This document shows, piece by piece, positions 17,408 through 50,030 of a DNA stretch of 64,000 nt. The DNA is taken from the NCBI GenBank assembly GCA_050742535.1, contig JBOGIQ010000002.1:1575-65574 (forward strand), written 5' to 3'. Made by a program: the position numbers and the translations under genes. The stretch is from Vicinamibacterales bacterium. GTDB taxonomy: Bacteria > Acidobacteriota > Vicinamibacteria > Vicinamibacterales > UBA2999. Under the pieces are notes generated by a model that searched no databases, had not been told where the DNA came from, and saw only the letters and a program-made list of their open reading frames with translations. How positions within the stretch are numbered: position 1 is the first letter of the stretch; each line of letters opens with the position of its first letter.

Positions 17408-17437
17408 TTGACACCTTGTCCCGGTTCGTGGATAAGA
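17408..17437 (+). promoter_or_regulatory. Candidate sigma70-type promoter upstream of the actA-like operon
   Basis: TTGACA (17408-17413), 18-nt spacer, TGg-ATAAGA (17429-17437). The cgtgg(a/t)a..at block is shared with the candidate promoter at 44163-44191. About 130 nt upstream of the TTG start at 17571. Motif reading only. Confidence 0.3.
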
Positions 17438-17570
17438 TTGCCGCGCTCTAATCGACAGCTTTTCGGTTCCTCCGACGAATCTTTTTTGGGACGCGCGGAT
17501 CGGCATCAGGGGCCCGGGGTGGACTCGTTGTCCGGGGCAACTGTCCACCGGCACCCCGGAGCCGTAGCCG

Positions 17571-18218
17571 TTGGCCCAAATTTTTCCCCCTTGGTGGAAC
17601 AAACTTCCGATCGTGGCGGCCGTCGTGGTCGTTCTCGGTCCCACACTCGCCACCGCGGGCGTCTGGTACTACTTTTCTCCGTGGTACACCGACGTCGGCT
17701 ACCGTCCCGTTCAGCCGGTCCCGTACAGCCATAAGCTCCACGTCGGCGAGCTTGGTCTCGATTGCCGGTACTGTCACGCCTCGGTTGAGACGTCTCCCGT
17801 CGTGAACCTCCCGCCGACGCGAACCTGCATGAACTGCCATCAGACCGTGATGAGGGACAGCGAGACGCTCGCGCCTATTCGGTCAAGCGCGCAGAGCGGA
17901 CGACCGATGCGCTGGATTCGGGTACACAACCTTCCCGACTACGCCTATTTCGCACACAACGCGCACGTGGCGGCGGGAATTGGCTGTGTCAGCTGCCACG
18001 GCCGCGTCGACGAGATGGAAGTGGTCACGCAGATGACGCCCCTCAGCATGAGCTGGTGCCTCGACTGCCATCGCAACCCCAGTCCGCAGAGACGGCCTGT
18101 CTCCGAGGTGACCAATATGAAGTGGACACCTCCGCGGGACGTCCAGACGCTCGCGGCGCGGCTCGACCGTGAACGACCGGTCAACCCGCCGACTGATTGT
18201 TCGGGGTGCCACCGGTGA
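17571..18218 (+). CDS. actA: ACIII ActA-like pentahaem cytochrome c (copy 1)
   Basis: Five CxxCH motifs (CRYCH, CMNCH, CVSCH, CLDCH, CSGCH) and an N-terminal TM. The TTG start is supported by alignment of (M)AQIFPP with the paralog MPQIFRR at 44274. Shared blocks: DCRYCH.SVETSP, PPT.TCMNCH, RP.RWIRVH.LPD. Confidence 0.9.
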   Translation: MAQIFPPWWNKLPIVAAVVVVLGPTLATAGVWYYFSPWYTDVGYRPVQPVPYSHKLHVGELGLDCRYCHASVETSPVVNLPPTRTCMNCHQTVMRDSETLAPIRSSAQSGRPMRWIRVHNLPDYAYFAHNAHVAAGIGCVSCHGRVDEMEVVTQMTPLSMSWCLDCHRNPSPQRRPVSEVTNMKWTPPRDVQTLAARLDRERPVNPPTDCSGCHR

Positions 18219-21217
18219 GTCGGACCTATTGGCGCAGCCTCGAGCAGATCGACGAACGCCCCGAATTCCGCACTTTTTTCGAGCGCGAGTTCCAGGAGGG
18301 TGCCTCGGAGCTTCCCGAAGGAATCACCCGGCGCGACATGATGATGCTCCTGGGCGCGTCGTTGTCGCTCGCCGGGCTCGCGGGGTGCCGGCGCCCCGCC
18401 GAAGAAATTGTTCCCTACGTCACGGCCCCTGAGGAGATCGTTCCTGGGATCCCCCGACAGTACGCGACGACCATGCCGTTCCGCCGGAGCGCTTACGGCC
18501 TGATCGTCGAGAGCCACGAAGGACGACCGACCAAGATCGAGGGCAATCCCTCGCATCCGTCGACCATGGGTGCCTCCAGCTCGCGCGTCCAGGCATCCGT
18601 ACTCGGCCTGTACGATCCCGACCGCTCGCAATCGGTCAGGTTGCGGGGCACGCGGAAGTCCTGGGACGAATTCGTGAAGGCGTGGGAGGAGCTCGCCAAA
18701 GCTCATGCTGCGGATGGCGGCGCCGGCCTTGCCGTCCTCTCAGAGTCCTTTTCTTCTCCCACGCTGGCGCGCCTGGTCTCCGAGCTTCGTGCCCGCTACC
18801 CTCGCTTGCAGTGGGCGACCTACGACGCCGTCAGCGACGAGAGCCGACTGGCGGGACTGCGGTCCGCCACGGGGCGCGACCTCGATGTGATGCTGCGGTT
18901 CGATCGAGCCGCGGTGATTCTCGCCCTCGACGCCGACCCGCTGCTCACCGACCCGGAGATGATCCGTCACGCGCGAGGTTTCGCGGAGGGAAGGCGCGCG
19001 GGAACCTCCGGTGGCGAGATGAATCGACTGTACGCGGTTGAAGGGGTCTACTCGCTGACAGGGGCGATGGCGGATCATCGGCTCCGTCTCGAGAGCCGGC
19101 AGATCGCCCCCTTTGTCGCGGCGCTCGCCGCGCGCCTTGCTCTGCCCGAAGCCGCGAGCCTGGCGGGAGCTGGCGTCCCGGGTCCGGACTCACGCTGGAT
19201 CGACGTCCTTGCCAAGGACCTTCTGGCGAACCGCGGCAAGAGTCTCATCGTGGCCGGGGAGCGCCAGCCCGCGGCCGTCCACGCCGCCGTGTGCGCCTTG
19301 AACACGTACCTCGGTAACGCAGGTAAGACGGTCAGCTATTACGAGACGAAGGACGCGGCGCTTCCGAGCGTGAGCTCGTTGAATGCGCTGGTTTCCGCGA
19401 TGAAGGGCGGCACGATCCAGACGCTCGTCGTCCTGGGCGGCAATCCTGTATTCGATGCCCCTGTCGATCTCGACTTCGCCTCGGCCATGGCGAAGGTTCC
19501 TCACTCAATCGTGCTCGGACACTCGGTCGACGAAACATCCTCCAGGGCGGAGTGGCATCTCCCGCGCGCTCACTATCTCGAGTCATGGGGAGACGCGCGC
19601 GCCGTTGGTGGCACGCTCAGCATCGTCCAGCCGCTCATCCTCCCGCTGTTCGGCGGACGAACCGCCGTTGAAGTGCTCGGGCTGATGGTCGCAGGCAAGG
19701 ATCGTCCAGGCTACGACATCGTGCGTGAGACCTGGAAACCGATCCTGGGCGACGGGTTCGACAGGAAGTGGAACCGCGTCCTGCATGACGGATTGCTGTC
19801 CGGCAGCGAGCTTCCGGAAGTTGTCCCCGATCTCACTGCGCAGTCGCTGGTGGAGCTTTCGCGCCTGATCGAGGCGGGACCGCCGCGTGGCCTGGAGATC
19901 GTGTTCCTCGCCTCTCCGTCGCTTCACGATGGCCGATTCGCCAACGACGGGTGGCTGCAGGAGCTTCCCGATCCCCTCACCAAGCTGACCTGGGACAACC
20001 CCGCCCTCGTCAGCCCGAAGACCGCCGAAACGTCCGGCCTTGCGGGCGGGGATTTGATCCGTCTCGACTACGCGGGCCGCTCGCTCGAACTCCCTGTCTG
20101 GATCGTTCCCGGCATGGCGGACGGCGTGGTGGCCCTCACGCTTGGCTATGGCCGTCAGCGCGCGGGGCGGGTCGGGTCCGGGGTGGGGTTCGACACGTTC
20201 ACTGTCCGGTCCTCCCGTGCGCCTGGCTTCGATAGCGACGTCAGACTTGCCAGGGTCGGGCGCACGTATCCGCTCTCGGCGACCCAGAACCACGGCAGCA
20301 TGGAGGGGCGACCCCTCGTTCGCGAGTCGACTCTCGCCGAGCTTCAATCGAAATCTGCTGCCGGCGCGGAGCGGGGCGAGAGCGAGCATGCGGGGGAGTC
20401 GAAAGGGGGAGGAATCCCCAGCCCGATCGGAGTCTTCGAAGAGGAAGCCCCACACTTCTCCCTCTGGAAGGAGCACACCTACGATCAGGGACACCAGTGG
20501 GGAATGACGATCGACTTGAACGCCTGCATCGGCTGCAACGCGTGCATGACGGCGTGTCAGAGCGAGAACAACGTGCCGGTCGTTGGGAAGAGGCAGGTCG
20601 CAAAGGGACGCGAGATGCACTGGATCCGGGTCGACCGGTACTTCTCCGGCGAGCCGTCGGGCCCTGAGGTCGTCTTCCAGCCCGTTCCCTGCATGCAGTG
20701 CGAGGATGCCCCTTGCGAACAGGTCTGTCCGGTCGCTGCGACCGTTCACGACGGGCAGGGCCTCAACGTGATGGTCTACAACCGGTGCATCGGAACCCGC
20801 TACTGCTCGAACAACTGTCCCTACAAGGTGCGCCGCTTCAATTTCTTCAACCTCACGAAGGACACGCCCGGCATCCTCAAGCTCGCGATGAACCCGGACG
20901 TCACGGTTCGTGCGCGAGGCGTGATGGAGAAGTGCACGTACTGCACGCAAAGGATCAATCGCACGAAGATCGATGCGAAGCTCGCGGGGCGCGAGCTTCG
21001 TGACGGCGACGTGAAAACGGCATGCCAGCAGGCGTGTCCCGCCTCGGCTATAGAGTTCGGAAATCTGCGGGACCAATCGAGCCGGGTCGTGAAGGCGAAG
21101 GCCGATCCACGCAACTACGCCCTCCTCGACGAGTTGAACACGAAGCCTCGGACGACGTATCTGGCCAAGGTGCGCAACCCGAATCCGGAGCTCGAGGAAG
21201 AGAGGCCCGTTGCATGA
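18215..21217 (+). CDS. actB: ACIII ActB-like subunit (molybdopterin-oxidoreductase-like domain fused to a 4-cluster ferredoxin domain), Tat leader (copy 1)
   Basis: Twin-arginine leader ITRRDMMMLLGASLSLAGLAGC. C-terminal FeS Cys clusters CIGCNACMTAC, CMQCEDAPCEQVCP, CIGTRYCSNNCP, CTYC...CQQACP. Collinear with the paralog at 44941. The start is taken as GTG 18215 (GTGA overlap with the actA stop); TTG 18197 is the alternative. Confidence 0.9.
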   Translation: MSRTYWRSLEQIDERPEFRTFFEREFQEGASELPEGITRRDMMMLLGASLSLAGLAGCRRPAEEIVPYVTAPEEIVPGIPRQYATTMPFRRSAYGLIVESHEGRPTKIEGNPSHPSTMGASSSRVQASVLGLYDPDRSQSVRLRGTRKSWDEFVKAWEELAKAHAADGGAGLAVLSESFSSPTLARLVSELRARYPRLQWATYDAVSDESRLAGLRSATGRDLDVMLRFDRAAVILALDADPLLTDPEMIRHARGFAEGRRAGTSGGEMNRLYAVEGVYSLTGAMADHRLRLESRQIAPFVAALAARLALPEAASLAGAGVPGPDSRWIDVLAKDLLANRGKSLIVAGERQPAAVHAAVCALNTYLGNAGKTVSYYETKDAALPSVSSLNALVSAMKGGTIQTLVVLGGNPVFDAPVDLDFASAMAKVPHSIVLGHSVDETSSRAEWHLPRAHYLESWGDARAVGGTLSIVQPLILPLFGGRTAVEVLGLMVAGKDRPGYDIVRETWKPILGDGFDRKWNRVLHDGLLSGSELPEVVPDLTAQSLVELSRLIEAGPPRGLEIVFLASPSLHDGRFANDGWLQELPDPLTKLTWDNPALVSPKTAETSGLAGGDLIRLDYAGRSLELPVWIVPGMADGVVALTLGYGRQRAGRVGSGVGFDTFTVRSSRAPGFDSDVRLARVGRTYPLSATQNHGSMEGRPLVRESTLAELQSKSAAGAERGESEHAGESKGGGIPSPIGVFEEEAPHFSLWKEHTYDQGHQWGMTIDLNACIGCNACMTACQSENNVPVVGKRQVAKGREMHWIRVDRYFSGEPSGPEVVFQPVPCMQCEDAPCEQVCPVAATVHDGQGLNVMVYNRCIGTRYCSNNCPYKVRRFNFFNLTKDTPGILKLAMNPDVTVRARGVMEKCTYCTQRINRTKIDAKLAGRELRDGDVKTACQQACPASAIEFGNLRDQSSRVVKAKADPRNYALLDELNTKPRTTYLAKVRNPNPELEEERPVA

Positions 21218-21897
21218 TCGCCCGCTCACGGGGTGTGCTGGGCGTGTTTATGCTCATCTCGCTTGTCGCCGTCAGCGGCTGCGTGCGCGGCTGCACGTCA
21301 AGCCGCCCTCCCATCCATCTCAACCCGAGCATGGACGACCAGCCGAAGGTCCGCCCGCAGGCGGCCAGCGATTTCTTCTACAACGGAGCGTCGATGCGAG
21401 AGCCCGTTCCGGGAACAATCCCGATCGGCGGGCTTCGGGAGGACGAGCCCTTCTTTACAGGCAAAGGAGCGGACGGCCAGTTCGTCGCGATGAGTCCCGT
21501 AGCCGTGGACGAGGCGCTTGTCGAGCGCGGCCGCCAGAGATACGGGATCTATTGCCAGCCTTGCCACGACGCTCGAGGGGACGGGAAGGGGATTCTGTTT
21601 CAGCGAGGCAACGTTCCCACCGCCACCTTCCACCAGGACAAGGTGCTGAAGTACCCGGACGGGCAAATCTTCGACGTCATCACGAACGGGGTAGGACTGA
21701 TGTCCGGGTACCGCTGGCCGATCCCTCCCGCGGACAGGTGGGCAATCGTCGCCTACGTGCGAACGATGCAGCGCGATCGGCAGGCACGCGCCGCGAGCGC
21801 ATCCGCCTCCGCTCCGGCTCCCGCCTCCGCTCCAGCTACGGCGGACAAGCCGGCGGACACGCCCGCCCCGCCTCCGCCGCCCAGCGGCGGCAAATGA
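21214..21897 (+). CDS. actE: ACIII ActE-like monohaem lipoprotein cytochrome c (copy 1)
   Basis: ATG at 21214 (ATGA overlap with the actB stop). Lipobox LVAVSGC, a single CQPCH, and DRWAIVAYVR, matching the paralog at 50031 (CAPCH, DRWAIAAYIR). Pro/Ala-rich tail. Confidence 0.85.
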   Translation: MIARSRGVLGVFMLISLVAVSGCVRGCTSSRPPIHLNPSMDDQPKVRPQAASDFFYNGASMREPVPGTIPIGGLREDEPFFTGKGADGQFVAMSPVAVDEALVERGRQRYGIYCQPCHDARGDGKGILFQRGNVPTATFHQDKVLKYPDGQIFDVITNGVGLMSGYRWPIPPADRWAIVAYVRTMQRDRQARAASASASAPAPASAPATADKPADTPAPPPPPSGGK

Positions 21898-21907
21898 GGC
21901 ACGCGCC

Positions 21908-23836
21908 GTGATGAAGAACCGCAAACTGCAGTTCCTTCTCGGTCCCGTCCTCGTCCTCGTGCTGTTCGGGGCGGTGGTCCAGATGGCCTCGTGGCTGATG
22001 AGCCGTGAGTACAAAGAGCCTTACGGAGCCCCTGCGGCGACGGTGGACTCCACGCCACGCGCCGCGGGACTGGCTGACGAAAAGGCTGACACAGAGGCGA
22101 GGGCCAAGGCGAAGCTGTACGAGGAGGCCGAATATCGGACCTTTCCAGTCGTTGGGAGCCGCGTAGCCATTTGGTCGGTCGCGCAGCTCCACCTGCTGTT
22201 CGCGGCGTTCGTCCTTGCCGTTCCGCTGTTCGCATTCATCATCGAGGTGATCGGCTACAAGACCGGAGATCTCCGATACGACAAGCTCGCGCACGAGTTC
22301 ACGAAGCTCCTGTCCGTCTCCTTCTCGCTCACGGCGACCTTCGGCGCGTTCCTGACGTTCATGCTGATCGCGCTGTACCCGAAGTTCACGAACTATCTGA
22401 TGAGCGTGTTCTCTCCCACGTTTCTCCCGTACGTACTGCTCTTCTTTGCCGAGGCGGGCTTCCTCTACACCTATTACTACGGCTGGGGGAAGTTCCATCC
22501 GCTGGTCCACCTTGGTTTAGGGCTCGGCCTGAACCTCGTGGGTACGGCGATCATGTTCATCGCCAATGCCTGGCTGACGTTCATGATGTCGCCGAACGGG
22601 GTCTCGGATACGGGGGCGGTGATCTCCGTCATGGACGCGGTCTACAACTTCACGTGGATGCCGATCAACGTCCATCGAGTGATCGCCAACGTCGCGTTCG
22701 GCGGATCGGTCGCGGCCGCCTACGCGGCCTTCAAGTTCCTCCAGGCGAAATCCGACGAGGAGCGCGCGCACTACGACTGGATGGGTTACATCGGGAACTT
22801 CGTCGCCATCAGCGCCTTCCTTCCGCTTCCCTTCGCCGGATACTGGCTCGCGAGTGAGATCTACGCCTATTCGCAGACGCTCGGGCTGACGATGATGGGC
22901 GGAGCCTTCTCATGGCTCTTCATCATTCAGGCCGTTCTGATCGGGAACCTCTTCCTCGCCGCCAACTTCTATCTCTGGCTCGGGATGGGACGTGTCGAGG
23001 AAGCGCAGCCGCTGCAGAAGTTCGTCAAGTACCTGCTCATCGCGATCGCGATCTGCTTCGCGGTCTGGGCGACACCGCGATCGATCATCGCGACGGTCTC
23101 CGAGCTCCGGGCGATGGGCGGATCGGCACACCCCGTTCTCGGCTTTCTCGGCGTCATGTCCGCCAAGAACACCGCCGTGAACATCCTGATCCTCACGACC
23201 TTCATGAGCTTCCTCCTCTATCGCCGGACAGGGAAGGTCGCCACGGTGCCGTGGGCGAAAACGGGCCATGCGGCGCAGCTCACGATCTTCGCCGCCGCCG
23301 CGATCTTCGTCATCTTCCTCGGCGTCTACGGGTACTTTGTCGAGGCGAGCGTCAGGATTGGCCTGTCGGTGCCCCAGGTCGGTTCGGTTCTGTTCGCGAT
23401 GGTGGCCATCACCGCGATCGACATCTTCCTCTTCCGCGGGGCGAAGACGGCCGCGGTGCGCTGGGGAAGGGTCCCGGCCAGTTCCCAGTACGTGCTGATT
23501 TTCATCGCGGTCACGTTCACGTGGCTCATGGGACTCATGGGCTACGTTCGCTCCGGGCTCCGCCAGCACTGGCATGTCTACGGCGTCATTCGGGACAACT
23601 CGCCCGACGCGTTCACGCCCACCCTCGGCTTCGCGACGCAGGTTGTCTCGGTGACCGTGCTGATCTTCTTCTTCCTGATCGGCTTCGTGTTCTGGCTCGC
23701 GAGCCTGCACGAGCGAGCCGAGCATCGAGCATATGCGCCATCACCCCAGAAAGGGCCGCACACGGGCGTGGACGTGGTTCTCGATGGCGCGCGCCTCTCC
23801 GCGCCGAACGTCGAGGGGCGCACCGGGCTGTCATGA
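21908..23836 (+). CDS. Cytochrome bd subunit I (CydA) superfamily homolog, ~14 TM, no Q-loop, no adjacent CydB
   Basis: 642 aa. Blocks alignable by eye to E. coli CydA: AQLHLLFAAFVLAVPL (H19 region), LLFFAEAGFLYTYYYGWGKF (conserved Glu region), FIANAWLTFMMSPNGV (ANGWMQNP-like), NVHRVIANVAFGGSVAAAYAAF (H186 region). There is an extra N-terminal TM and about 7 extra C-terminal hydrophobic segments. Confidence 0.8.
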   Translation: MMKNRKLQFLLGPVLVLVLFGAVVQMASWLMSREYKEPYGAPAATVDSTPRAAGLADEKADTEARAKAKLYEEAEYRTFPVVGSRVAIWSVAQLHLLFAAFVLAVPLFAFIIEVIGYKTGDLRYDKLAHEFTKLLSVSFSLTATFGAFLTFMLIALYPKFTNYLMSVFSPTFLPYVLLFFAEAGFLYTYYYGWGKFHPLVHLGLGLGLNLVGTAIMFIANAWLTFMMSPNGVSDTGAVISVMDAVYNFTWMPINVHRVIANVAFGGSVAAAYAAFKFLQAKSDEERAHYDWMGYIGNFVAISAFLPLPFAGYWLASEIYAYSQTLGLTMMGGAFSWLFIIQAVLIGNLFLAANFYLWLGMGRVEEAQPLQKFVKYLLIAIAICFAVWATPRSIIATVSELRAMGGSAHPVLGFLGVMSAKNTAVNILILTTFMSFLLYRRTGKVATVPWAKTGHAAQLTIFAAAAIFVIFLGVYGYFVEASVRIGLSVPQVGSVLFAMVAITAIDIFLFRGAKTAAVRWGRVPASSQYVLIFIAVTFTWLMGLMGYVRSGLRQHWHVYGVIRDNSPDAFTPTLGFATQVVSVTVLIFFFLIGFVFWLASLHERAEHRAYAPSPQKGPHTGVDVVLDGARLSAPNVEGRTGLS

Positions 23837-24516
23837 CAATCCCGCTCGTTGCCCGGATTGGCGTTCTCGTCCTCGCGACGACTGCGTTCTATGGCTACGT
23901 CGGCCAGATGGTGCCTCAAAGCGAAGTTCAGCCTCCCGAGGAGATCGCCATCAGAGCCGACCTCACGACGCCAGAGATGGTCGAGATCGGCCGCGAGATC
24001 GCTGACGGTAAGGGCCTGTGCCGGACCTGCCACACGATCGGCCAGAGCGGTGCGCTCCGGTTCCCCGACCTCGCTGGAGTCGCCGGTCGCGCGGCGGAGC
24101 GCGTCCAGGGCCTGAGCGCTCTCGACTACTTCGCCCAATCGCTGTACGAACCTGACGCCTTCGTTGTGCCGGGATTCAATCCGGGGATGCCGACGATCAA
24201 CAGGCCCCCGATTGGCCTGACCGATCAGGAGATCCTCTGCGTGATCGCGTACCTCCAGTCTCTTGGCGGCACGCCGACGGTCACGCTCCAGACGAGCCAC
24301 CGCTACTACGCCGCGCCGGCCACGCCGGGTGCGGCGCCGCCTGGCGCCGCGGCAGGCGCACCCGTTACGACGCCGGCCGCACCGGGCGTACCGGGTACCA
24401 CGCCGGCCGCTCCGGGCGCTCCGCAGAAACCCGAGCCTGGCCAGCCGTTGCCTCTTACCCGGCCACCAGCCGAGCCGGCTCCCGCGGCCCCTGCGAGAGG
24501 AGCGGTCACACGATGA
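23833..24516 (+). CDS. Membrane-anchored monohaem cytochrome c with Pro/Ala-rich tail
   Basis: ATG 23833 (ATGA overlap with the upstream stop). N-terminal TM IGVLVLATTAFYGYV, a single CRTCH, and a downstream GMP Met-ligand candidate. Only the distal 227 codons of track ORF 22912-24516 are credible. Confidence 0.8.
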   Translation: MTIPLVARIGVLVLATTAFYGYVGQMVPQSEVQPPEEIAIRADLTTPEMVEIGREIADGKGLCRTCHTIGQSGALRFPDLAGVAGRAAERVQGLSALDYFAQSLYEPDAFVVPGFNPGMPTINRPPIGLTDQEILCVIAYLQSLGGTPTVTLQTSHRYYAAPATPGAAPPGAAAGAPVTTPAAPGVPGTTPAAPGAPQKPEPGQPLPLTRPPAEPAPAAPARGAVTR

Positions 24517-25331
24517 ACATCCTCGTCGTCGTCGCGGTTGTTGCCGCGTTCGGGCTTCTCCGCTTTCGTCGGGCCAACCTGCTGTTGTGGGCCATCGCCT
24601 GGTGGGCGGGGATTTACGTCCTGCTCCGATTCGGATTCACGATCCCGATTCCCGCCTCCGTCATCTCGATCTACATGGGAATTGTCTCTCTCGCGATCCT
24701 GGCGTACATGTCTTCCAGTCAGGAACGCCGCGAAGAGGTCTCCCGCCCGCTCATCCGGTTGATGACCGAGAAGCGGTACACCGCGCTCCTCGCCGCAACG
24801 GCGATTGCCATACCGGCGCTCGCAGCCGCGAACGTCTACGTCAAGTTGAATGTCCCCCTCGAGCCTCCGTTCTTTCCGCGAACGATCCATCCGGCATCGC
24901 CTTCCGAGATCAGGGTTCACGACAAGACGATCCCGATCGACGCTGGAGACAACCCCTTCAGACAACTCGAACGATCGAATCCGGAAGAGTTCCGCAGGCA
25001 CGTAGAAAACGGGCGCCAGGTCTACTACCGGAACTGCGTCTTCTGCCACGGCGACAACCTGGGGGGCAACGGCATGTTCGCGCATGCGTTGAACCCGATC
25101 CCGACCAATTTCGCCGACGGGCAGACGCTCCCGAATCTCAGCGAGACGTTCCTGTTCTGGCGAATCTCCAAGGGAGGACCGGGGATGCCCGACGAAGGGG
25201 CGCCATGGGACACGGCCATGCCCGCCTGGGAGAAGTTCCTCAAAGAAGAAGAGATGTGGGACGTGATTCTCTTTCTCTACGATTTCACAGGCCAGAGGCC
25301 CGCTGTGCGCGCCCTGGAGGCCGCGCACTGA
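24513..25331 (+). CDS. Polytopic (about 4 TM) membrane protein with C-terminal monohaem cytochrome c domain
   Basis: 272 aa, ATGA overlap at 24513. Four N-terminal hydrophobic segments, then CVFCH and GGPGMP...MPAW typical of class I cytochrome c. Confidence 0.8.
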   Translation: MNILVVVAVVAAFGLLRFRRANLLLWAIAWWAGIYVLLRFGFTIPIPASVISIYMGIVSLAILAYMSSSQERREEVSRPLIRLMTEKRYTALLAATAIAIPALAAANVYVKLNVPLEPPFFPRTIHPASPSEIRVHDKTIPIDAGDNPFRQLERSNPEEFRRHVENGRQVYYRNCVFCHGDNLGGNGMFAHALNPIPTNFADGQTLPNLSETFLFWRISKGGPGMPDEGAPWDTAMPAWEKFLKEEEMWDVILFLYDFTGQRPAVRALEAAH

Positions 25332-27034
25332 TGCGACCCCGACTGATGTCGCGCGCGTGTTTCGCGGCTCTGGTCGCCTGGTTGTGCGCCGGGATGGGAT
25401 CCGTGCGCCCGCAGGGGCAGGGTCCCGACGTCGGCACCGAAGCGCAGCGGGAGTCGGGCAAGAACCTGTATCTCAAGTACTGCTCGCAGTGCCACGGCGA
25501 CAAAGGGGACGCCGCGGGCTACGCTACACCGCATCTGCTCCCCCGGCCCCGCGACTTCACGCAGGGCAAGTTCAAGGTTCGCACGACCCCGAGCGGAGCG
25601 CTCCCGAGCCATCAGGATCTCGTCAACATCATCAGGCTGGGCATGCCCTATACCTCGATGCCCGCCTGGCCCGACTTGTCGGACGGGGAGGTGTCGGATC
25701 TCGCCTACTTCCTGACCACGTTCTCCGCCGACTTCTCGAACCCTGAGCGTGTGCCGCCGCCGATGGAGCTCCCGGGTGCGCCGAGCTCGACGAACGAGTC
25801 CATCGAGCTCGGAAAGAAGCTTTACGTGGATACCGGCTGCATCAAGTGCCACGGCAACCTCGGTCGGGGCGATGGACCATCGGCCCCGACGCTGACGGAC
25901 GACCTGGGGCAGCCAATACGGGCAGCAGACCTCACGCAGAGCTGGACCTTCCGGGGAGGATCCTCCCGCGAGGATATTTTCCGGACGATGACCGCGGGGT
26001 TCAACGGCACGCCAATGCCGTCGTTTGTCGACAGCCTCTCGACAGAGCAGCGGTGGGCGATTACGGACTATATAGCCTCGCTCTCGGGGAGCAACGGGCC
26101 TGGCTATACCAATCTCGTCATTGCGAAGCCGGTCCAGGATCCAATCGATTTGGAGAAAGGGGCTGCAAGCTTCGAATCTGCTCCGGTGGCCCGCTTCCCG
26201 ATCATCGGACAGATTACGGAGCCCGGACGCTCGTTTCATCCTCCCGCGACCTCCATGACGGTTCAGGCCATCTACGACGCCGAGTCGATCGCCCTTCTCG
26301 TTCGATGGCACGACATGAGCGCGGACAAGGCTGGAAAGAACGGGCCGACGCTTCCCGTGCCGCCGGAGGAGGAAGAGTCGGCGCCGGCAGGTGCGCAGAA
26401 GGCCGGAGAGAGCCCGTTTGGCGATGCGGAACTCGCGCCAGCTCAGAAGACCGAAACGGACCCCTTCGCCGAGGAAGCACCAGCCGTCCCGGCATCCGAG
26501 TTCTCCGACGCGGTCTCGATTCAGGTTCCCTCGCAGGTGCCGGCCGGCTCTCGCAAGCCCTATTTCATTCTTGGTGACACCCAGAGCTCGGTGGATCTCT
26601 GGTTCTTCGACCTGGCCCGCAACGGACCCCTTCAGTTCACCGGCCGGGGAAGCGCGGACGTCTCGCCCAACGACACGGGCGATCTCACCGGTGTCGCGAG
26701 CTACGACCAGGGACAATGGTCGGCCATCTTCAAACGGCCCCTTCGCGCCAGCTCGGGTGCCCCGTTGTCGCCCGGGCAGTTCATGCCGGTCGCCTTTTCG
26801 GTCTGGGACGGGTTCTCCCGCGAGCGTGGCAACCGGCGTGGTCTCACGGTCTGGCAGTCTCTCTACCTCGAGCCGGAAGCGGTTCCGTCGGTGATCGGTC
26901 CGATGGTGAGGATTGCCCTGATCATTCTTGCTATCGAACTCATCGTCATCGGCTTGGTGCGCTGGCGTTACGGCTCACGCGCCCGCGGGGCGCTCGGTGG
27001 TGACCCAAGTCAACCGGCAGCCACGCGAGCGTGA
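25331..27034 (+). CDS. Dihaem cytochrome c fused to an EB_dh (ethylbenzene dehydrogenase gamma / DOMON-like haem-binding) domain, C-terminal TM anchor
   Basis: ATG 25331 (TGATG overlap). Signal peptide; CSQCH and CIKCH. C-terminal half shows the EB_dh-like pattern (IYDAESIALLVRWHD..., WSAIFKRPL..., VAFSVWDGFSRERGNRRGLTVW). Final TM IALIILAIELIVIGLV. The upstream 356 codons of track ORF 24263-27034 are an out-of-frame artefact. Confidence 0.75.
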   Translation: MRPRLMSRACFAALVAWLCAGMGSVRPQGQGPDVGTEAQRESGKNLYLKYCSQCHGDKGDAAGYATPHLLPRPRDFTQGKFKVRTTPSGALPSHQDLVNIIRLGMPYTSMPAWPDLSDGEVSDLAYFLTTFSADFSNPERVPPPMELPGAPSSTNESIELGKKLYVDTGCIKCHGNLGRGDGPSAPTLTDDLGQPIRAADLTQSWTFRGGSSREDIFRTMTAGFNGTPMPSFVDSLSTEQRWAITDYIASLSGSNGPGYTNLVIAKPVQDPIDLEKGAASFESAPVARFPIIGQITEPGRSFHPPATSMTVQAIYDAESIALLVRWHDMSADKAGKNGPTLPVPPEEEESAPAGAQKAGESPFGDAELAPAQKTETDPFAEEAPAVPASEFSDAVSIQVPSQVPAGSRKPYFILGDTQSSVDLWFFDLARNGPLQFTGRGSADVSPNDTGDLTGVASYDQGQWSAIFKRPLRASSGAPLSPGQFMPVAFSVWDGFSRERGNRRGLTVWQSLYLEPEAVPSVIGPMVRIALIILAIELIVIGLVRWRYGSRARGALGGDPSQPAATRA

Positions 27035-27060
27035 GCTGTTGCGGGCAATCCGGAGGAGTC

Positions 27061-29070
27061 ATGTACAAGAGCATCTACGTTCCCGTCGATAACTCGGACC
27101 ACTCCAACCGCGCCGTCACCTGCAGCCTCGCGCTCGGGAAGGCGTTCTCGGCGAAGCTGGTCGGCTGTCATGTCTACGCGGCACAGCTGCACGACTATCG
27201 CTTCAGGCAGATGGAGTACACCCTGCCCGAGGAGTACATCGACGAGGTGGAACTGGAGCGCCAGCGCAAGATCCACGACAGCCTCATCACGATGGGCCTC
27301 AAGCTCATCTCCGACAGCTATCTCGATGGCATGTCGCGCCAGTGTGGCGAGTCGGGCCTGGCGTTCGAGCCGCGGATGATGGACGGGAAGCATCACACGG
27401 AGATCCTCAAGGATCTCGCCGGCTCACCGCACGACCTGGTCGTAATCGGCGCATTAGGCATCGGGCGCGCCAAGGACAGCGTCATCGGCTCCGTGTGCGA
27501 ACGCGTGGCTCGCCAGTCCGACCGCGATGTCTGGGTGGTCAAGCACGTCCCCGAGCCGGGCGAGGCCGAGCGGGACACGATCCTCGTTGGCATCGACGGC
27601 AGCCCGCAGTCGTTCGGCGCCCTCATGACCGCCATCGACCTCGCACGCTCGTTCGGGAAGAAGGTCGAAGCGATCGCTGTCTACGACCCCTATCTGCACT
27701 ATTCCGTGTTCAACGGCATCGTCAACGTCCTCACCGAGCAGGCGGCGAAGGTCTTCCGCTTCGAGGAGCAGAATCAGCTGCACGAGGAGATCATCGATAC
27801 GGGCCTCGCGCAGATCTACCAGTCACATCTCGAGGTCGGCGAGCGGATGGTGAGCGAAACAGGCATCGAGATCAAGAAGACGCTGCTCGACGGCAAGCCC
27901 TTCCAGAAAATCATCGACCACGCGCGGAAAACGAATCCGTGGCTGATCGTGCTGGGACGGATCGGCGTCCACAGCCCGAAGGGCGAGACCAGTCTCGGGA
28001 GCAACGCGGAGAACATCCTCCGCTCCGCGCCATGCGACGTCCTCCTCTCCACGCGGCTCGAAGTGCCGCGCCTCGACCTGCGCGCCGAAGAAACCATCAG
28101 ATGGACGCCTGAAGCCGAGGCGCGGATGACGCACGTGCCCGAGCAGGTCAAGGGCATCGCGCGCACCGGCGTCCTCCGGCTGGCGCTCGAGAAGGGACAC
28201 TCCGTGATCACGAGCGCGGTGATCGACGAAGCGATGGATCGGTTCATGCCGAAGAGTGCCTCGGCCGCGACGAAAGCGCTGGCCGAGGCGGTGGCTCTCG
28301 AGCGGGCGAAGTCCGGCCCGGTGTCGATGTGCCGGTCGTGCGGCGTCGCGGCGACGCAGAGTGGCGCCGTCAAGTGCACCGTGTGCGGTTCCACGGACTT
28401 CGAGGTGATCTCGCAGGAGATGATCGAGAAGATTGCGGCCGCCGAGGGAGGCCTCGAGGAAGAGACGACCTACGACGGACGCAAGCTCCGCTGGTCCGAG
28501 GACGCGAGGAAGGGCCTGTGGACCATGAAGAACGCGTATCAGCGCCGCCGCGTCAAGGCGCGTGTCGAAAAACGCGCGCGCATGATGAAGCTCGATGCAA
28601 TCACGCTCGACTTCGCGCGGCAGGTGATCGAGGAAGAAACCGGAGCGCCGCTGGAGATCCAGGTTCGTACTGCGCCACTCCCTGAGAGCGCCGCGGCCGC
28701 AACGGGCGAAGCCCGGCTCGTGGTCCGCGACGACAAGAAGAACCCGTTGATCTCGACCTTCGATTGGACGAGTGATGCCGCACAACGCATCCTGCGCGTG
28801 CCGGCCGGCTTCATGCGGAACCAGACGCAGGAGCGGATCGAGGAGCTTGCGCGGGAACGCGCCGCGTCAACCATCGACCTGGCGCTCGTCGAGGAGGGCA
28901 TCGAGATCGGCAAGAAGATGATGGCCGAGATGATCGCGACCTATCAGGGCCCGTCATCGGCGAAGCCCGCGGCTGCGACACCGCGTGCGTCGGTCAGCGG
29001 CAACGGCAATGACAGCGGGTATCTCAATGAGGTGAGCCCGCTCACGGCACGCAGTGCGTCTGAGGGGTGA
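27061..29070 (+). CDS. Tandem universal stress protein (Usp) domains fused to three PCP_red (BchB/ChlB C-terminal-like) repeats
   Basis: ATG 27061 is preceded by GGAGGAG (27052-27058). Usp-type starts MYKSIYVPVDNSDHS and ILVGIDGSPQS. The three ~45-aa repeats are IRWTPEAEARMTHVPEQVKGIARTG..., LRWSEDARKGLWTMKNAYQRRRVKAR..., FDWTSDAAQRILRVPAGFMRNQTQER.... A CxxC..CxxC knuckle (CRSCG...CTVCG) sits between repeats 1 and 2. Confidence 0.75.
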   Translation: MYKSIYVPVDNSDHSNRAVTCSLALGKAFSAKLVGCHVYAAQLHDYRFRQMEYTLPEEYIDEVELERQRKIHDSLITMGLKLISDSYLDGMSRQCGESGLAFEPRMMDGKHHTEILKDLAGSPHDLVVIGALGIGRAKDSVIGSVCERVARQSDRDVWVVKHVPEPGEAERDTILVGIDGSPQSFGALMTAIDLARSFGKKVEAIAVYDPYLHYSVFNGIVNVLTEQAAKVFRFEEQNQLHEEIIDTGLAQIYQSHLEVGERMVSETGIEIKKTLLDGKPFQKIIDHARKTNPWLIVLGRIGVHSPKGETSLGSNAENILRSAPCDVLLSTRLEVPRLDLRAEETIRWTPEAEARMTHVPEQVKGIARTGVLRLALEKGHSVITSAVIDEAMDRFMPKSASAATKALAEAVALERAKSGPVSMCRSCGVAATQSGAVKCTVCGSTDFEVISQEMIEKIAAAEGGLEEETTYDGRKLRWSEDARKGLWTMKNAYQRRRVKARVEKRARMMKLDAITLDFARQVIEEETGAPLEIQVRTAPLPESAAAATGEARLVVRDDKKNPLISTFDWTSDAAQRILRVPAGFMRNQTQERIEELARERAASTIDLALVEEGIEIGKKMMAEMIATYQGPSSAKPAAATPRASVSGNGNDSGYLNEVSPLTARSASEG

Positions 29071-29921
29071 GCTCGTACCGCTTTTGCCGCACCGATGACA
29101 TCGGGCTACTCGTCGACGCGCTGAATCGCTGTTGGCTGCCGTACTTTCCCGACGAGGGGCCGATGACGCCGGCCGCGTTCAAGCGGTCGATCCGCGACCT
29201 GCAGGTGTGGTGCAGCAGCTGCATGGTCGCCTTCTCGGGGTCCGACCCGATCGGCGTCCTGATCGGCGCCAAGCGGCCTTCCGGAACCCTCGTCCATACA
29301 CTCGCGGTCCATCCCGATCATCGGCGTCAGGGTCATGGGCGCCACCTGCTCGCGTCGCTCGGCTCGAAGCTCGCGATCCTCGGCCCCCCGAGAATTGCCG
29401 CTGAGGTCCCCGAGACTCTCGCGCCTGCCTGCGCGCTGTTCGGCGCAAGCGGGTATGTCCAGGAAGCGCTGCTGACAGACTACGTCTCGCAGCGAGCAGC
29501 CGAAGACAGTGAAACCCGTCAAGGGTTCGTCATCCCGGTCACGGTTGACGATCTCGCGGCCAATGACCTCCTTGGACAGGTGCAACCGCAGGTCTGCTGG
29601 AATCGCTCCGTCGAGACGCTCACGGCAAGGAAGGACGAGATCGCAGGACTCGCCGTCGCCTCCGACGAGCGAATCGAGGCCTTTATTCTCTACGTGATGA
29701 ACGGCATAAAAGAGACCGAGATTCTATCGCTCCGCTCCTTCATCGAGGACGGTGGCGCCCGCTTGAAGCAGCTGCTCTCTCAACTCCACGCGCGAGGCGT
29801 TGAGACCTTCCGGTTCCCGAAGGTCCACCCGGCCGAGATCTCGAAGGAGTGGCTGGAGACGCTCGGGTTCCGCGCTGCCGGCAGGCACCTGCTCTATGCA
29901 GCGAAGGCGCGGTCCGACTAG
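29067..29921 (+). CDS. GNAT-family N-acetyltransferase
   Basis: 284 aa, GTGA overlap with the upstream stop. Acetyl-CoA motif LAVHPDHRRQGHGRHLLASL. Confidence 0.7.
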   Translation: MSSYRFCRTDDIGLLVDALNRCWLPYFPDEGPMTPAAFKRSIRDLQVWCSSCMVAFSGSDPIGVLIGAKRPSGTLVHTLAVHPDHRRQGHGRHLLASLGSKLAILGPPRIAAEVPETLAPACALFGASGYVQEALLTDYVSQRAAEDSETRQGFVIPVTVDDLAANDLLGQVQPQVCWNRSVETLTARKDEIAGLAVASDERIEAFILYVMNGIKETEILSLRSFIEDGGARLKQLLSQLHARGVETFRFPKVHPAEISKEWLETLGFRAAGRHLLYAAKARSD

Positions 29922-30433: not shown

Positions 30434-31318
30434 GTGAAGCGCTATCACGACATCGTCGGCGACGGAGGGTCGAGAGTCCTCGAGCAGGTTGCCGCGCAGC
30501 GGACCCGCATCACGGAGGGGCTCGCCGAGGTGCGCCATCTCGTGGCCGTGGGGTCCGGCAAGGGGGGAGTCGGCAAGAGCACGTTGACTCTGCATCTCGC
30601 GGGCGCTCTGCGGGCCCGGGGGCTGCGGATTGCGATCCTGGACGCGGACTTCAACGGCCCCTCACAGGCGCGCATGGCCGGTGTCCTGGGGGCCTTGTTC
30701 GTGCCTGGCACCCGCAAGGTCGCGCTCCCGCGGACCAGGAACGGGATCGCGGTGTTCTCGATGGGCTCGCTGATTCCGGAGTCGCAAGCGCTCGAGTTCG
30801 AAAGCGCGGCGGACGGTGAGTCTCATACGTGGCGTGCCACGAGGGAGTTCGCTCTCCTCGGCGAGGTCCTCGCGTCCTTCGAGTGGGGAGCGCTCGATCT
30901 GCTGATGTTCGACCTGCCGCCGGGAGCGGAGCGTACCGTCCAGTACGCCGATTTTCTCGGGCCCCGGACGTCATTCCTGCTCGTGACGATCCCTTCCGAC
31001 GTGGCACGGGGCGTGGTCGCGCGCTCGGCAGCAGCGCTGTCGAAGGGACGCAATCGCCTCCTCGGTTACGTCGAGAATATGAGCGGCTACTACTGTCGCG
31101 ACTGCGACGCGATCAAGCCCCTCTTCGATACGGGGCAGGACAGCCCGTCGCACCTTGAGATCCCCTGCCTCGGTACCGTCCCATTCGATCCGGAGCTTGC
31201 GCGGCACTGCGATCGGGGGATCCCGCTCGCGGAACGGACCGAAACGCCCGTTGGCAGGGCCCTGGAGCGTGTTGCGCAGCAACTTCTGGAAAGCCTCGAA
31301 TTGGAGCCGCCAAGATGA
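30434..31318 (+). CDS. Mrp/NBP35/ApbC-family P-loop ATPase (Fe-S cluster carrier-like)
   Basis: Deviant Walker A VGSGKGGVGKSTLTLHLA and the ENMS..C..C motif (VENMSGYYCRDCDAIKPLF). GTG start. Confidence 0.85.
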   Translation: MKRYHDIVGDGGSRVLEQVAAQRTRITEGLAEVRHLVAVGSGKGGVGKSTLTLHLAGALRARGLRIAILDADFNGPSQARMAGVLGALFVPGTRKVALPRTRNGIAVFSMGSLIPESQALEFESAADGESHTWRATREFALLGEVLASFEWGALDLLMFDLPPGAERTVQYADFLGPRTSFLLVTIPSDVARGVVARSAAALSKGRNRLLGYVENMSGYYCRDCDAIKPLFDTGQDSPSHLEIPCLGTVPFDPELARHCDRGIPLAERTETPVGRALERVAQQLLESLELEPPR

Positions 31319-31755
31319 AGTTTCTCTGCGTCCCTTGCGACAGCCCGATGAAGCTGCAAACCGTCGGGCCGCCCGAACGGGGCTCGCTGTCGATCGTCTA
31401 TGCGTGTCCTGAGTGCGGCTACGAGATGGCCATGCTCACGAACGCGTACGAGACACAGGTCGTCCAGTCTCTCGGCGTGCGGGTCGGTGTAGAGAGCGGC
31501 AGTGGGAGCGCGGCCGAACCGAACAAGTGCCCGTTCCCGGCGATGATCCCGTCGACGGAGGGTGCCCGACCCGGGCAGACTGGCGAGCCGATCCCCGTCC
31601 GGTGGACTGCCGCCGCGGAAGCCCGGCTCGCGAACATTCCTGAGTTCGTTCGTCCGATGGCGCGAACCGGCATCGAGAGATTTGCTCGCGAAAGGGGAGC
31701 CCTGGAAGTAGACGAGACGATCCTCGACGCGGCCCGTGACTTCTTCGGCATGTAG
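31315..31755 (+). CDS. Zinc-ribbon protein with C-terminal PCP_red domain
   Basis: 146 aa, ATGA overlap with the Mrp stop. CVPC...CPEC ribbon. C-terminal VRWTAAAEARLANIPEFVRPMARTGIERFARERGALEVDETILDAARDFFG closely resembles the BchB/ChlB C-terminal motif (W..EAE..L..IPFFVRGK.RRNTE.FAR..G). Confidence 0.8.
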   Translation: MKFLCVPCDSPMKLQTVGPPERGSLSIVYACPECGYEMAMLTNAYETQVVQSLGVRVGVESGSGSAAEPNKCPFPAMIPSTEGARPGQTGEPIPVRWTAAAEARLANIPEFVRPMARTGIERFARERGALEVDETILDAARDFFGM

Positions 31756-31764: not shown

Positions 31765-33168
31765 ATGAACTTGGAAGGATTTGCCCGTCCCTACGTCGTT
31801 TCCTGGAACCTCACCTACCGCTGCAACCTCGCCTGCGAGCACTGCTATCTCGACGCTGGCCCGACGCGTCTGGTCGGCACGGAGAACTTTGCCGATCGGA
31901 GCGAGCTCGGCACCGAGGAATGCTTCAGGGTCATTGACGACATCGCCGCATTTGCGCCTGAATGCCTCACGATCCTGACCGGCGGCGAGCCGCTCTTACG
32001 GCGCGACATACTCGAAATCGTCCAGCGCGCCGCGGAGCGTGGACTGTGGGTCGTCGTCGGCACCAACGGCGTGCGCATCACGGAGAACGTGGCGCGGCGC
32101 CTGGCGGAGGCCGGAGCACGGGGCCTCTCCCTTTCCCTCGACGCACTCGATGCCGACAGTCACGACCGTTTCAGGAAGGTGCGTGGCGCCTGGCACAACA
32201 CCGTGGAGGGCGCGGAGATCCTCAATCGGACCGGGCTCCCCTTCATCGTCCAGACCACTGCGGGCTCGCACAATATCGGCGCGCTCGAAGCGATTGCCGA
32301 TTTCGCGCACGATCGCCTCGCCGCCAAAGTGTGGAACCTCTACTTCCTGGTGCCGACGGGGCGCGGGCAGTTCGTCTCCGACATGACCCCAGCGCAGTAC
32401 GACGAGGTGCTCGCCTCTCTCTACCGAATCCAGCAGAAGTACAACCGCCGGATGCTCGTGAACGCGAAGTGCGCACCGCACTACATCAAGACCGTGCTGG
32501 AGAATGCCCACCTTCGCCAAGGCTCCGGCGGGCAAGCCGGCGATGAAACCGATTCGACGTCCCCCATCAGGACCTACTCGGGAGGGGCCGGCGGGTGCCC
32601 GGCGGGGACGCACTATATGGGTATACGTCCGAACGGGGATGTCACGCCCTGCCCATACCTCCCGGTCTTCGCCGGCAACCTTCGCCGGTCGCCGCTCGCC
32701 GAGCTCTGGACGTCATCGGAGCTGTTCGCCAATATTCGCCGTCGCACCTCGCTCGGCGGGCGATGCGGGGAGTGCGAGATGAACGGACACTGCGGGGGCT
32801 GCCGCGCCAGGGCCTACGGGATGACCGCCGATCTGATGGCCGAGGATCCCCTATGTACCCACACCCCAGGGAAGTTCGCCGGGTCCCCGCTCCTGGTGCT
32901 TCGCGGCCCAAACGGCTCTCGTCCGCCCTCGCCCCTTCGGGGCTACGGCGACACGCCGCCGTTGATCGAGTACGGCGGCGAATCGCCGCCGACTATCGCC
33001 TGGGATGAAGCAGCCGCCACCCGCATGAAGAACGTCCCCGCGTTCGTCCGCGGAATGGTCATCAGGGCCGTCGAGGAATCCTGTCGCAAGGAAGGGCTGG
33101 ATCGTGTAACCGTCGAGGAGCTCGAACGGATCCGCGCACGGATGCCAACCCCAAAGCTCTTCAGATAG
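31765..33168 (+). CDS. Radical SAM / SPASM-domain enzyme (NirJ/AhbC/AhbD-like) with C-terminal PCP_red domain
   Basis: CNLACEHCY radical-SAM cluster motif, TGGEPLLRRD, GTNG. SPASM Cys pattern GCPAG...GDVTPCPY...CGECEMNGHCGGCRARAY...DPLC. C-terminal IAWDEAAATRMKNVPAFVRGMVIRAVEESCRKEGLDRVTVEELERIRARMP. Confidence 0.85.
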   Translation: MNLEGFARPYVVSWNLTYRCNLACEHCYLDAGPTRLVGTENFADRSELGTEECFRVIDDIAAFAPECLTILTGGEPLLRRDILEIVQRAAERGLWVVVGTNGVRITENVARRLAEAGARGLSLSLDALDADSHDRFRKVRGAWHNTVEGAEILNRTGLPFIVQTTAGSHNIGALEAIADFAHDRLAAKVWNLYFLVPTGRGQFVSDMTPAQYDEVLASLYRIQQKYNRRMLVNAKCAPHYIKTVLENAHLRQGSGGQAGDETDSTSPIRTYSGGAGGCPAGTHYMGIRPNGDVTPCPYLPVFAGNLRRSPLAELWTSSELFANIRRRTSLGGRCGECEMNGHCGGCRARAYGMTADLMAEDPLCTHTPGKFAGSPLLVLRGPNGSRPPSPLRGYGDTPPLIEYGGESPPTIAWDEAAATRMKNVPAFVRGMVIRAVEESCRKEGLDRVTVEELERIRARMPTPKLFR

Positions 33169-44933: not shown

Positions 44934-44940
44934 CCCGCCC

Positions 44941-48044
<3,104 letters not shown>

Positions 48045-48045
<1 letters not shown>

Positions 48046-50023: not shown

Positions 50024-50030
50024 ATCAGCG

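Follow-up and report, generated by a model that had tools for sequence, protein, structure and literature searches.

Since 2010, cytochrome bd-like proteins of the OR-N type have been presumed to act as the terminal oxidases of Nitrospira. Here we describe one from the Acidobacteriota, which are among the most abundant bacteria in soil. It is encoded in a 64-kb stretch of DNA, hereafter the window, on contig JBOGIQ010000002.1 of a Vicinamibacterales metagenome-assembled genome (MAG), and all coordinates, the promoter scan and the domain searches refer to the numbering of the window. Directly upstream of the bd-like gene are paralogues of the genes for three subunits of alternative complex III (ACIII), ActA, ActB and ActE. 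The genes for a matching ActC, ActD and ActF lie in another operon, with an aa3-type haem-copper oxidase. This division of a second ACIII gene set between two oxidase operons is the subject of this paper.

Homologues of cytochrome bd that lack the Q-loop have been divided into OR-C and OR-N (Murali, Gennis and Hemp 2021, 10.1101/2021.01.16.426971). OR-N2 operons typically carry several cytochromes c and an EbdC homologue (Murali et al. supplement, 10.1101/2021.01.16.426971), and the OR-N2 signature comprises 14 transmembrane (TM) helices, H19, Tyr at E99, E107, H126, H186, Met or Asn at M393, Ser at E445, and W441 (Table S6, 10.1101/2021.01.16.426971). The name TO_1 has been given to the OR-N2-type module of the Nitrospirota, the NIDE0901-like complex (Yu et al. 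2021, 10.1101/2021.11.15.468770). Two further systems bring ACIII and a bd-like oxidase together: TO_3 of Ca. Manganitrophus, with a bd-like protein of clade V (10.1101/2021.11.15.468770), and the clusters of the Nitrospirales in which actABCDE is followed by OR-N5 (PMC12342949). In the structure of ACIII from Rhodothermus marinus, all the prosthetic groups are on ActA, ActB and ActE, while the quinol site is on ActC (PMC5928083). Electrons are received by the iron-sulphur (FeS) cluster FeS1, and the last haem of the wire is that of ActE, beside the oxidase; the roles of Asp169 of ActC in the quinol site and Glu122 of ActD in coupling have been described (PMC5928083).

The locus in the window shares with OR-N2/TO_1 a bd-like subunit of about 14 TM helices with the signature residues and no Q-loop, followed by two cytochromes c and a dihaem cytochrome c fused to an EbdC-like domain. 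It differs in what surrounds this module, as ActA, ActB and ActE paralogues precede it and Usp-PCP_red, GNAT, Mrp, PCP_red and radical SAM genes follow. In Nitrospira an OR-N1 paralogue is near, whereas there is none nearby here, and the module is found here in a Vicinamibacterales MAG of heterotroph type instead of in an oxidiser of nitrite or manganese. The TO_3 and OR-N5 clusters likewise place ACIII genes and a Q-loop-less bd-like oxidase together, implying electron transfer from quinol through ACIII to the bd-like protein. However, they keep actC and actD by actA and actB, and OR-N5 is a 10-TM protein with paired a and b subunits, whereas here the ACIII is split over two operons and the oxidase is OR-N2. 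The supercomplexes of ACIII with caa3 or aa3 oxidase (R. marinus 6F0K, Flavobacterium johnsoniae 6BTM) have the same subunit families and an oxidase adjoining the act genes, and in them the ActE haem hands electrons to the oxidase. All their act subunits are in one operon, but here the two arms are in two operons and the oxidase types differ. Canonical CydAB (qOR1-3) has the same CydA fold and equivalents of His19, His186 and Met393. In contrast to it, the locus has no CydB, no Q-loop, Tyr at E99, Ser at E445, and about five extra TM helices.

A preliminary description of the locus had proposed that it might encode a previously uncharacterised membrane complex. For the bd-like module this was overstated. 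The bd-like gene and the three cytochrome genes behind it belong to the family already described as OR-N2 (Murali) and TO_1 (Yu), which is known but biochemically uncharacterised, and the linkage of ACIII to a bd-like oxidase was known for OR-N5, in the Nitrospirales and in Ca. Manganitrophus. Our literature search, which left outside it most subscription journals and notably the ACIII gene-cluster papers in Biochimica et Biophysica Acta, found no ActABE-only cluster with OR-N2, no orphan ActCDF cluster with a haem-copper oxidase and no linkage of PCP_red with radical SAM. Nor did it find a structure of a bd-like oxidase.

The two halves of a second ACIII gene set

The operon of the bd-like protein begins with seven consecutive genes:

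17571..18218, plus strand: g1, actA2, pentahaem cytochrome c with an N-terminal TM helix (five CxxCH; Pfam Cytochrome_C7/c3, NCBIfam QrcA-like)
18215..21217, plus strand: g2, actB2, Tat-exported protein with a molybdopterin-like domain and a four-cluster FeS domain (TIGR04519, 4Fe-4S domains)
21214..21897, plus strand: g3, actE2, monohaem lipoprotein cytochrome c (lipobox VSGC, CQPCH, Cytochrome_CBB3 1.9e-10)
21908..23836, plus strand: g4, OR-N2-type cytochrome bd-like membrane protein without a Q-loop (Cyt_bd_oxida_I, PF01654, 5.4e-21)
23833..24516, plus strand: g5, membrane-anchored monohaem cytochrome c (CRTCH, Cytochrom_C 2.3e-07)
24513..25331, plus strand: g6, 4-TM protein with a monohaem cytochrome c domain (CVFCH, Cytochrome_CBB3 9e-11, four hydrophobic segments)
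25331..27034, plus strand: g7, dihaem cytochrome c fused to EB_dh (EbdC-like), with a C-terminal TM helix (two CxxCH, EB_dh 2.2e-14)

Re-reading the sequence gave the same seven open reading frames (ORFs), coordinates and junctions as the preliminary description, and Pfam and NCBIfam searches of the products confirmed the gene identities. The claim of a tight operon was borne out by start/stop overlaps at five of the six junctions: GTGA at 18215 (g1/g2), ATGA at 21214 (g2/g3), 23833 (g4/g5) and 24513 (g5/g6), and TGATG at 25329-25333 (g6/g7), where the ATG of g7 starts at 25331. The remaining junction, from actE2 to the bd-like gene, is a gap of 10 nucleotides (21898-21907), with GAGG 8 nucleotides ahead of the GTG start. 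Counted gene by gene, the CxxCH motifs (5, 0, 1, 0, 1, 1 and 2) come to the 10 that had been reported. A terminator scan found no terminator-like site on the plus strand of 17571-27034, and the promoter and terminator scans were otherwise uninformative. What had been missed is that the string of co-directional, overlapping genes runs on past g7 to 33168; the genes and order of the proposed seven-gene unit were right, but they are the front part of a 12-gene operon (17571-33168).

The assignment of g1, g2 and g3 as actA, actB and actE paralogues also stood, on the strength of their identity to the canonical subunits (43% for ActA, 47% for ActB and 39% for ActE) and of the conserved cysteines and haem motifs. 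The canonical copies are those of the first ACIII set in the window:

44274..51861, plus strand: canonical, unsplit ACIII set 1, actABCDEF, followed by a caa3 oxidase (Pfam NrfD, ActD)

In the alignments g2 keeps 15 of the 15 FeS cysteines of ActB, and all six haem motifs align, the five of g1 one-to-one with those of ActA and the single one of g3 with that of ActE. The match of g2 to R. marinus ActB (6F0K_B) reaches 7.9e-296; it also matches QrcC (NCBIfam, 1.3e-60), its leader scores above cut-off as a TIGR04519 TAT-variant Mo-oxidoreductase leader (2e-10), and the ligands of FeS1 are conserved. The sequence features that mark ActA, ActB and ActE as ACIII subunits are present in g1, g2 and g3, the molybdopterin-like domain of g2 being presumably free of its cofactor, as in ActB.

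The preliminary description had stated that actC, actD and actF are absent. This is true of the operon, among whose 12 products Pfam searches found no NrfD-like ActC or ActF and no ActD, but not of the window. A search by tblastn with ActC, ActD and ActF against the window identified a second set at 38348-41612 on the minus strand, in an operon (41612-33481) that converges on the bd-like operon with its 3' end at 33168:

40113..41612, minus strand: actC2, NrfD-like quinol-site subunit (NrfD 1.6e-21; 58% identity to ActC)
39553..40113, minus strand: actD2 (Pfam ActD 2.2e-65; 6F0K_D 3.6e-55)
38348..39556, minus strand: actF2 (39% identity to ActF; its ATG overlaps the actD2 stop by 4 nucleotides)
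38202-37480, minus strand: X240, secreted protein with a CarboxypepD_reg-like domain, always between actF2 and coxI
37460-35697, minus strand: CoxI (Pfam COX1 4e-133)
35694-35104, minus strand: CoxIII (Pfam COX3), followed by small membrane proteins
34311-33481, minus strand: CoxII (Pfam COX2; CuA-type motif CAQLCGLGHARM, no CxxCH)

The overlap of actC2 with actD2 is 1 nucleotide. ActC2 matches R. marinus ActC (6F0K_C) at 1.3e-208 and keeps the quinol-site Asp169 as D184, and ActD2 keeps the coupling residue Glu122 as E111. There is no actA, actB or actE beside actC2D2F2. An ACIII wire that works without ActC, ActD and ActF, as had been suggested, is unnecessary, since a cognate orphan set lies 11 kb downstream and the pairing is conserved.

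The cofactor subunits of set 2, ActA2 (five haems), ActB2 (one 3Fe-4S and three 4Fe-4S clusters) and ActE2 (one haem), are encoded with the bd-like module, and the cofactor-less membrane subunits ActC2, ActD2 and ActF2 with the aa3-type haem-copper oxidase. The gene identities, the conserved motifs, this split arrangement and its conservation are direct observations. The window thus holds two ACIII sets and three putative terminal oxidases.

The bd-like module

The Pfam match of g4 scores 75 bits, against a cut-off of 26. In sequence alignment its similarity to solved CydA proteins is confined to TM1-5 and ends after TM5. An AlphaFold2 model (predicted local distance difference test score 74, predicted template modelling score 0.77) has 14-15 helices, g4 having about five TM helices more than CydA, and the top 10 Foldseek matches to this model were all CydA, with probability 1.0. 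Residues H95, Y175, E182, H201, H256, M417/N421, S549 and W555 of g4 are the OR-N2 signature, as matched by numbering offsets relative to the reference TKS59798.1, and none of them varies among 62 aligned sequences from Acidobacteriota and Nitrospira. The equivalents of His19, His186 and Met393 and part of the proton channel are invariant, and E99 and E445 of canonical bd oxidases are replaced by Tyr and Ser.

Identity of g4 to Nitrospira OR-N2 proteins is 43-46%. In Nitrospira sp. Kam-Ns4a a 45%-identical protein is followed by genes for a g5-like cytochrome (c5), a g6-like cytochrome (c6) and a dihaem-c::EB_dh fusion; an OR-N1 paralogue and a PCP_red gene lie 5' at a distance, and there are no act genes at this locus. 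Pfam found no CydB domain in any product of the 12-gene operon of the window, and the window contains no second bd-like gene. The CydA homology and fold, the residue signature and the operon with cytochromes c and an EbdC homologue place g4-g7 in the OR-N2 subfamily, whereas the CydB, Q-loop and Glu99/Glu445 of canonical CydAB are all missing. In public databases these OR-N2 proteins (P0002-P0120 among our matches, and their cluster members) are called 'cytochrome bd-type quinol oxidase subunit 1' or 'cytochrome d ubiquinol oxidase subunit I'. With no Q-loop and no CydB, these names are misleading. Where cydA serves in metagenomic surveys to mark high-affinity microaerobic respiration, OR-N2 proteins will be miscounted.

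The product of g7 has two cytochrome c domains and an EB_dh domain (54.5 bits, cut-off 33.3). Its dihaem part (N-terminal half, 25331-26100) matches 6H5L_B at 6.5e-53, a chain that is the dihaem cytochrome deposited with an HAO-like protein of Kuenenia stuttgartiensis. The EB_dh part matches EbdC (2IVF_C, 1.2e-07), with Lys201 of EbdC, one of the Met/Lys pair of haem b ligands, aligned with Arg, and may bind a putative haem b.

Two natural fusions of a bd-like protein to a g5-like protein (P0121 and P0123), with the cytochrome c at the C-terminus of the bd-like protein and a consistent topology, support a complex of the bd-like protein with cytochrome c. An 841-residue ORF joining ActE2 to the bd-like protein (P0069) was rejected as a Rosetta-stone fusion because such a protein would have its bd-like part the wrong way round in the membrane. 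As the actE2 and bd-like genes also lie in different frames here, P0069 probably results from a frameshift. Broken NrfD, ActD, CoxI and radical SAM genes, and one ActE2::bd-like fusion, were seen in the long-read ENA contigs L166, L168 and L172. Frameshift errors probably explain this breakage, and P0069 is likely to be of the same kind.

Conservation of the arrangement

The first alignment of bd-like proteins used to search for loci (A1) was very diverse and held no usable conserved stretch, but a narrower one (A2) worked. For the counts of adjacency, the ORFs of the best 80 GTDB loci were compared with the window proteins, and the denominators are the assessable loci.

The bd-like gene is 100% identical to one on contig DATLLQ010000041.1, from a Vicinamibacterales MAG of the Acidobacteriota. 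The protein has matches in at least 7341 clusters at E <= 1e-10, the best 120 all at least 82% identical. Relatives occur in at least 598 species genomes of GTDB, with Acidobacteriota supplying most of the top matches. E2 lies directly 5' of the bd-like gene in 58/74 loci, with B2 (50/64) and A2 (49/62) further 5'; on the 3' side are c5 (73/74), c6 (69/69) and EB_dh (60/61). The adjacency of actABE to the bd-like gene, which the preliminary description had pointed out, is thus real in 49/62 to 58/74 of the best-matching loci, and as it recurs in about 50 independent genome assemblies it is not an assembly artefact. The loci with A2B2E2 are labelled Vicinamibacteria, Thermoanaerobaculia, Polarisedimenticolia and Holophagae. 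We found no cultured isolate with the cluster, whose members carry only MAG or generic names.

The module also occurs without ActABE, in Nitrospira, Calditrichia, Rhodothermales, MAGs labelled Fibrobacteres and some Acidobacteriota, which makes ActABE an add-on input rather than an obligate part of the oxidase. The genes 5' of the clusters without A2B2E2 are heterogeneous and often on the opposite strand, so no other module takes the place of A2B2E2 in those loci. Where ActA, ActB and ActE do adjoin the bd-like gene, they score higher to A2, B2 and E2 than to the canonical copies (53/57, 50/54 and 61/63, respectively). Almost all the exceptions are genes in a canonical ACIII cluster, the other being the bd-adjacent ActA/ActB pair of locus L043. 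This pattern indicates a separate orthologous lineage.

Scanning metagenomes with ActC2 yielded at least 586 relatives. Throughout the 80 best ActC2 loci the order C2-D2-F2-X240-CoxI-CoxIII-x-CoxII is constant, and ActA/B are never ahead of it. The two operons are also neighbours elsewhere. The radical SAM, PCP_red and Mrp genes (RSAM<-PCP<-MRP<) come after CoxII in at least 9 ActC2-centred loci, and CoxII< comes after the radical SAM gene in at least 12 bd-centred loci. Among loci centred on the Mrp gene, the whole island is present in one locus in L165 (ENA, a 382-kb contig) and L167 (NCBI GCA_003222675.1). In L137 the two operons are head-to-head (A2< | C2). Both halves are gone together in L170 and L072, where the bd-like cluster has no A2B2E2 and the oxidase operon no C2D2F2. 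More distant contigs carry unsplit actABCDEF operons whose A, C, D and F are clearly closer to set 2 than to set 1, which fits one ancestral operon that was later split.

A proposed split ACIII and its alternatives

By themselves, A, B and E offer electrons no point of entry, and C, D and F by themselves carry no cofactors; the simplest explanation is that both sets form one ACIII. We infer that A2B2E2 and C2D2F2 assemble physically, and infer likewise which way the electrons flow and that O2 accepts them. It seems reasonably likely to us that set 2 is an ACIII split over two oxidase operons that passes electrons to the bd-like oxidase, the aa3 oxidase or both. Menaquinol would be oxidised at ActC2, and the electrons would enter ActB2 at FeS1 and move along the haem wire of ActA2 to ActE2. 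From there they would go through g5, g6 and g7 to the haems of the bd-like protein, where O2 would be reduced. The aa3 oxidase needs an external cytochrome c, because its subunit II has no cytochrome c domain, and the same wire could serve this oxidase as well. Nitrospira strains that have no oxidase other than the OR-N type suggest that OR-N enzymes reduce O2 (PMC12342949), and in Ca. Manganitrophus the expression of TO_1 reaches the 98th percentile (Yu et al. 2021, 10.1101/2021.11.15.468770).

Several points weigh against this split ACIII with an oxidase at its end. OR-N2 proteins do not have the Glu99 and Glu445 of canonical bd oxidases, and to our knowledge no OR-N enzyme has been purified to date. 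OR-N2 is thought to pair with OR-N1 in Nitrospira, and the window has no second bd-like gene. The bd-like clusters lack A2B2E2 in 13/62 loci. In L033 and L047 A2B2E2 is present but C2D2F2 is missing from the divergent oxidase operon next to it, which starts at X240, so the pairing of A2B2E2 with C2D2F2 is not always local. L168 is a counter-example of the opposite kind, with C2D2F2 present and no bd-like cluster adjacent. A further difficulty is that set 1 offers ActA2B2E2 a different partner. The second head could replace ActA, ActB and ActE on the set 1 ActC/D/F core and redirect electrons to the bd-like oxidase, with ActC2D2F2 working with something else. Canonical ACIII or caa3 genes lie less than 10 kb from A2B2E2 in L007, L018, L020, L026, L032, L034, L045, L050, L059, L064 and L078, and in L064 actCDEF is directly followed by A2B2E2. 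We nevertheless consider such an exchange highly improbable, as A, B and E are already encoded in set 1, no cofactor subunits at all would remain for the orphan C2D2F2, and A2 and C2/D2/F2 share a common lineage distinct from set 1.

The alternative closest to the preliminary description is a stand-alone complex without ActC, in which ActA2B2E2 docks on the bd-like protein, g6 or the EB_dh subunit and takes electrons from an unknown periplasmic donor, with no quinol site. It would resemble the alpha-beta-gamma assembly of type II molybdoenzymes, with FeS4 of ActB2 facing haem b. In its favour, FeS2-4 have no settled role in ACIII and FeS4 comes close to the surface of the protein (PMC5928083), four-cluster FeS subunits of type II dimethyl sulphoxide reductase enzymes have EB_dh proteins as their partners, and the seven translationally coupled genes suggest co-assembly. 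The additional TM helices of the bd-like protein and the lack of C2D2F2 beside the cluster in L033 and L047 fit this picture too. Even so, we judge the stand-alone complex, and its molybdoenzyme-like form with it, to be quite unlikely: a matching orphan actC2D2F2 exists and is syntenic, FeS1 is conserved although its sole known role is to take electrons from the quinol site, and the EbdC haem ligand Lys201 aligns with Arg in g7. It is also established that the characterised NrfC/ActB-type subunits all sit on an NrfD-type subunit. This reading and the sharing of the canonical ActCDF both lost weight once tblastn revealed the second C/D/F set. Doubt of another kind concerns the end of the path. 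The bd-like module might use another acceptor or be a transmembrane electron conduit, and its operon would then not be a terminal-oxidase operon. The replacement of key bd residues (E99 by Tyr, E445 by Ser), the fact that no OR-N enzyme has been characterised and the two haem-copper oxidases already in the window would suit such a role. We find it very unlikely, however, because the residues corresponding to His19, His186 and Met393 do not vary, nor does part of the proton channel, and some aerobic Nitrospira have OR-N-type oxidases only (PMC12342949).

The split ACIII can also be extended to a joint system, which we regard as unlikely if conceivable. The set 2 hub would join the aa3 and OR-N2 bd-like oxidases in one megacomplex, with the gene split enforcing their co-expression. 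The bd-like oxidase might also carry a non-standard haem, made or inserted by way of g12-type radical SAM and PCP_red proteins, and the 4Fe-4S branch of ActB2 might connect to the EB_dh haem b.

A split ACIII would wire an uncharacterised oxidase family to a recognisable quinol-oxidising complex in soil Acidobacteriota, with an electron path that can be tested. Should the cluster be present in cultured strains, such heterotrophic hosts may be more tractable for biochemical work. It is unusual for a cofactor arm to be encoded with one oxidase and its membrane arm with another, and this organisation bears on the assembly of ACIII-oxidase supercomplexes and on the unexplained 4Fe-4S branch of ActB.

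Downstream genes and other features of the window

Beyond g7 the bd-like operon continues with the following genes:

27031..29070, plus strand: g8, cytoplasmic protein with two Usp and two PCP_red domains (Usp 3.5e-40, PCP_red 5.2e-20); its GTG overlaps the g7 stop
29067..29921, plus strand: g9, GNAT acetyltransferase (Pfam Acetyltransf_1); its start overlaps the g8 stop
29985-30350, plus strand: ORF of 121 residues, lying between g9 (GNAT) and g10 (Mrp); signal peptide, no Pfam match
30434..31318, plus strand: g10, Mrp/ApbC/NUBPL-type Fe-S cluster carrier ATPase (ParA (NUBPL) 3.4e-51, MrpORP 2.5e-45)
31315..31755, plus strand: g11, small PCP_red-domain protein (PCP_red 1e-15)
31765..33168, plus strand: g12, radical SAM, SPASM and PCP_red protein of AhbD/NirJ type (AhbD 1.2e-89, NirJ2 4.5e-83)

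These genes probably encode assembly and cofactor (maturation) factors for the oxidase system. The scores of g12 are below the NCBIfam equivalog cut-offs (AhbD 301 of 500 bits, NirJ2 279.5 of 500, TIGR04053 264.7 of 395), and from its sequence it appears to be a relative of the AhbD/NirJ tetrapyrrole-modifying enzymes, not a member; it is probably dispensable for ordinary haem b synthesis. PCP_red forms the C-terminal domain of protochlorophyllide reductase subunit B, and its presence hints at tetrapyrrole handling. A literature search on PCP_red (PF08369) and its linkage with radical SAM found nothing relevant.

The Usp-PCP_red gene follows the EB_dh gene in 51/55 loci and the GNAT gene is present in 44/55. 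The remaining downstream genes were seen in about half of the loci, an undercount resulting from the 10-kb flanks. In Calditrichia and Rhodothermales, both without A2B2E2, the probable maturation set is kept in another gene order. Locus L001 has no room for the 121-residue ORF, as its GNAT and Mrp genes overlap. In L169 an IS21-type and a DDE transposase (13621-17151 of that locus) lie between the radical SAM gene and coxII, at the point where the two operons converge.

Two features lie just upstream of the two operons:

17408..17442, plus strand: candidate promoter TTGACA-17 nt-GATAAG, read by eye in the 199-nucleotide gap 5' of g1; weak
41649..42437, minus strand: chlorite-dismutase-family gene, HemQ/ChdC-like, directly 5' of actC2 (Pfam Chlor_dismutase 1.3e-54)

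A strict consensus promoter scan did not pick up the candidate promoter, and an Rfam scan of 16500-34500 gave no match. GC content is even along the whole window. The HemQ/ChdC-like gene 5' of C2 is conserved in close relatives, with 82-96% identity where seen. Between this gene and the canonical actA is a 465-residue ORF without a Pfam match (42711-44108, plus strand). The canonical ACIII is followed by X292, SCO1 and the caa3-type oxidase (51540-57037, plus strand), whose CoxII has CuA and a CNTCH motif. In L018, L020, L026, L032, L034, L045 and L078 a caa3 operon lies directly 5' of actA2.

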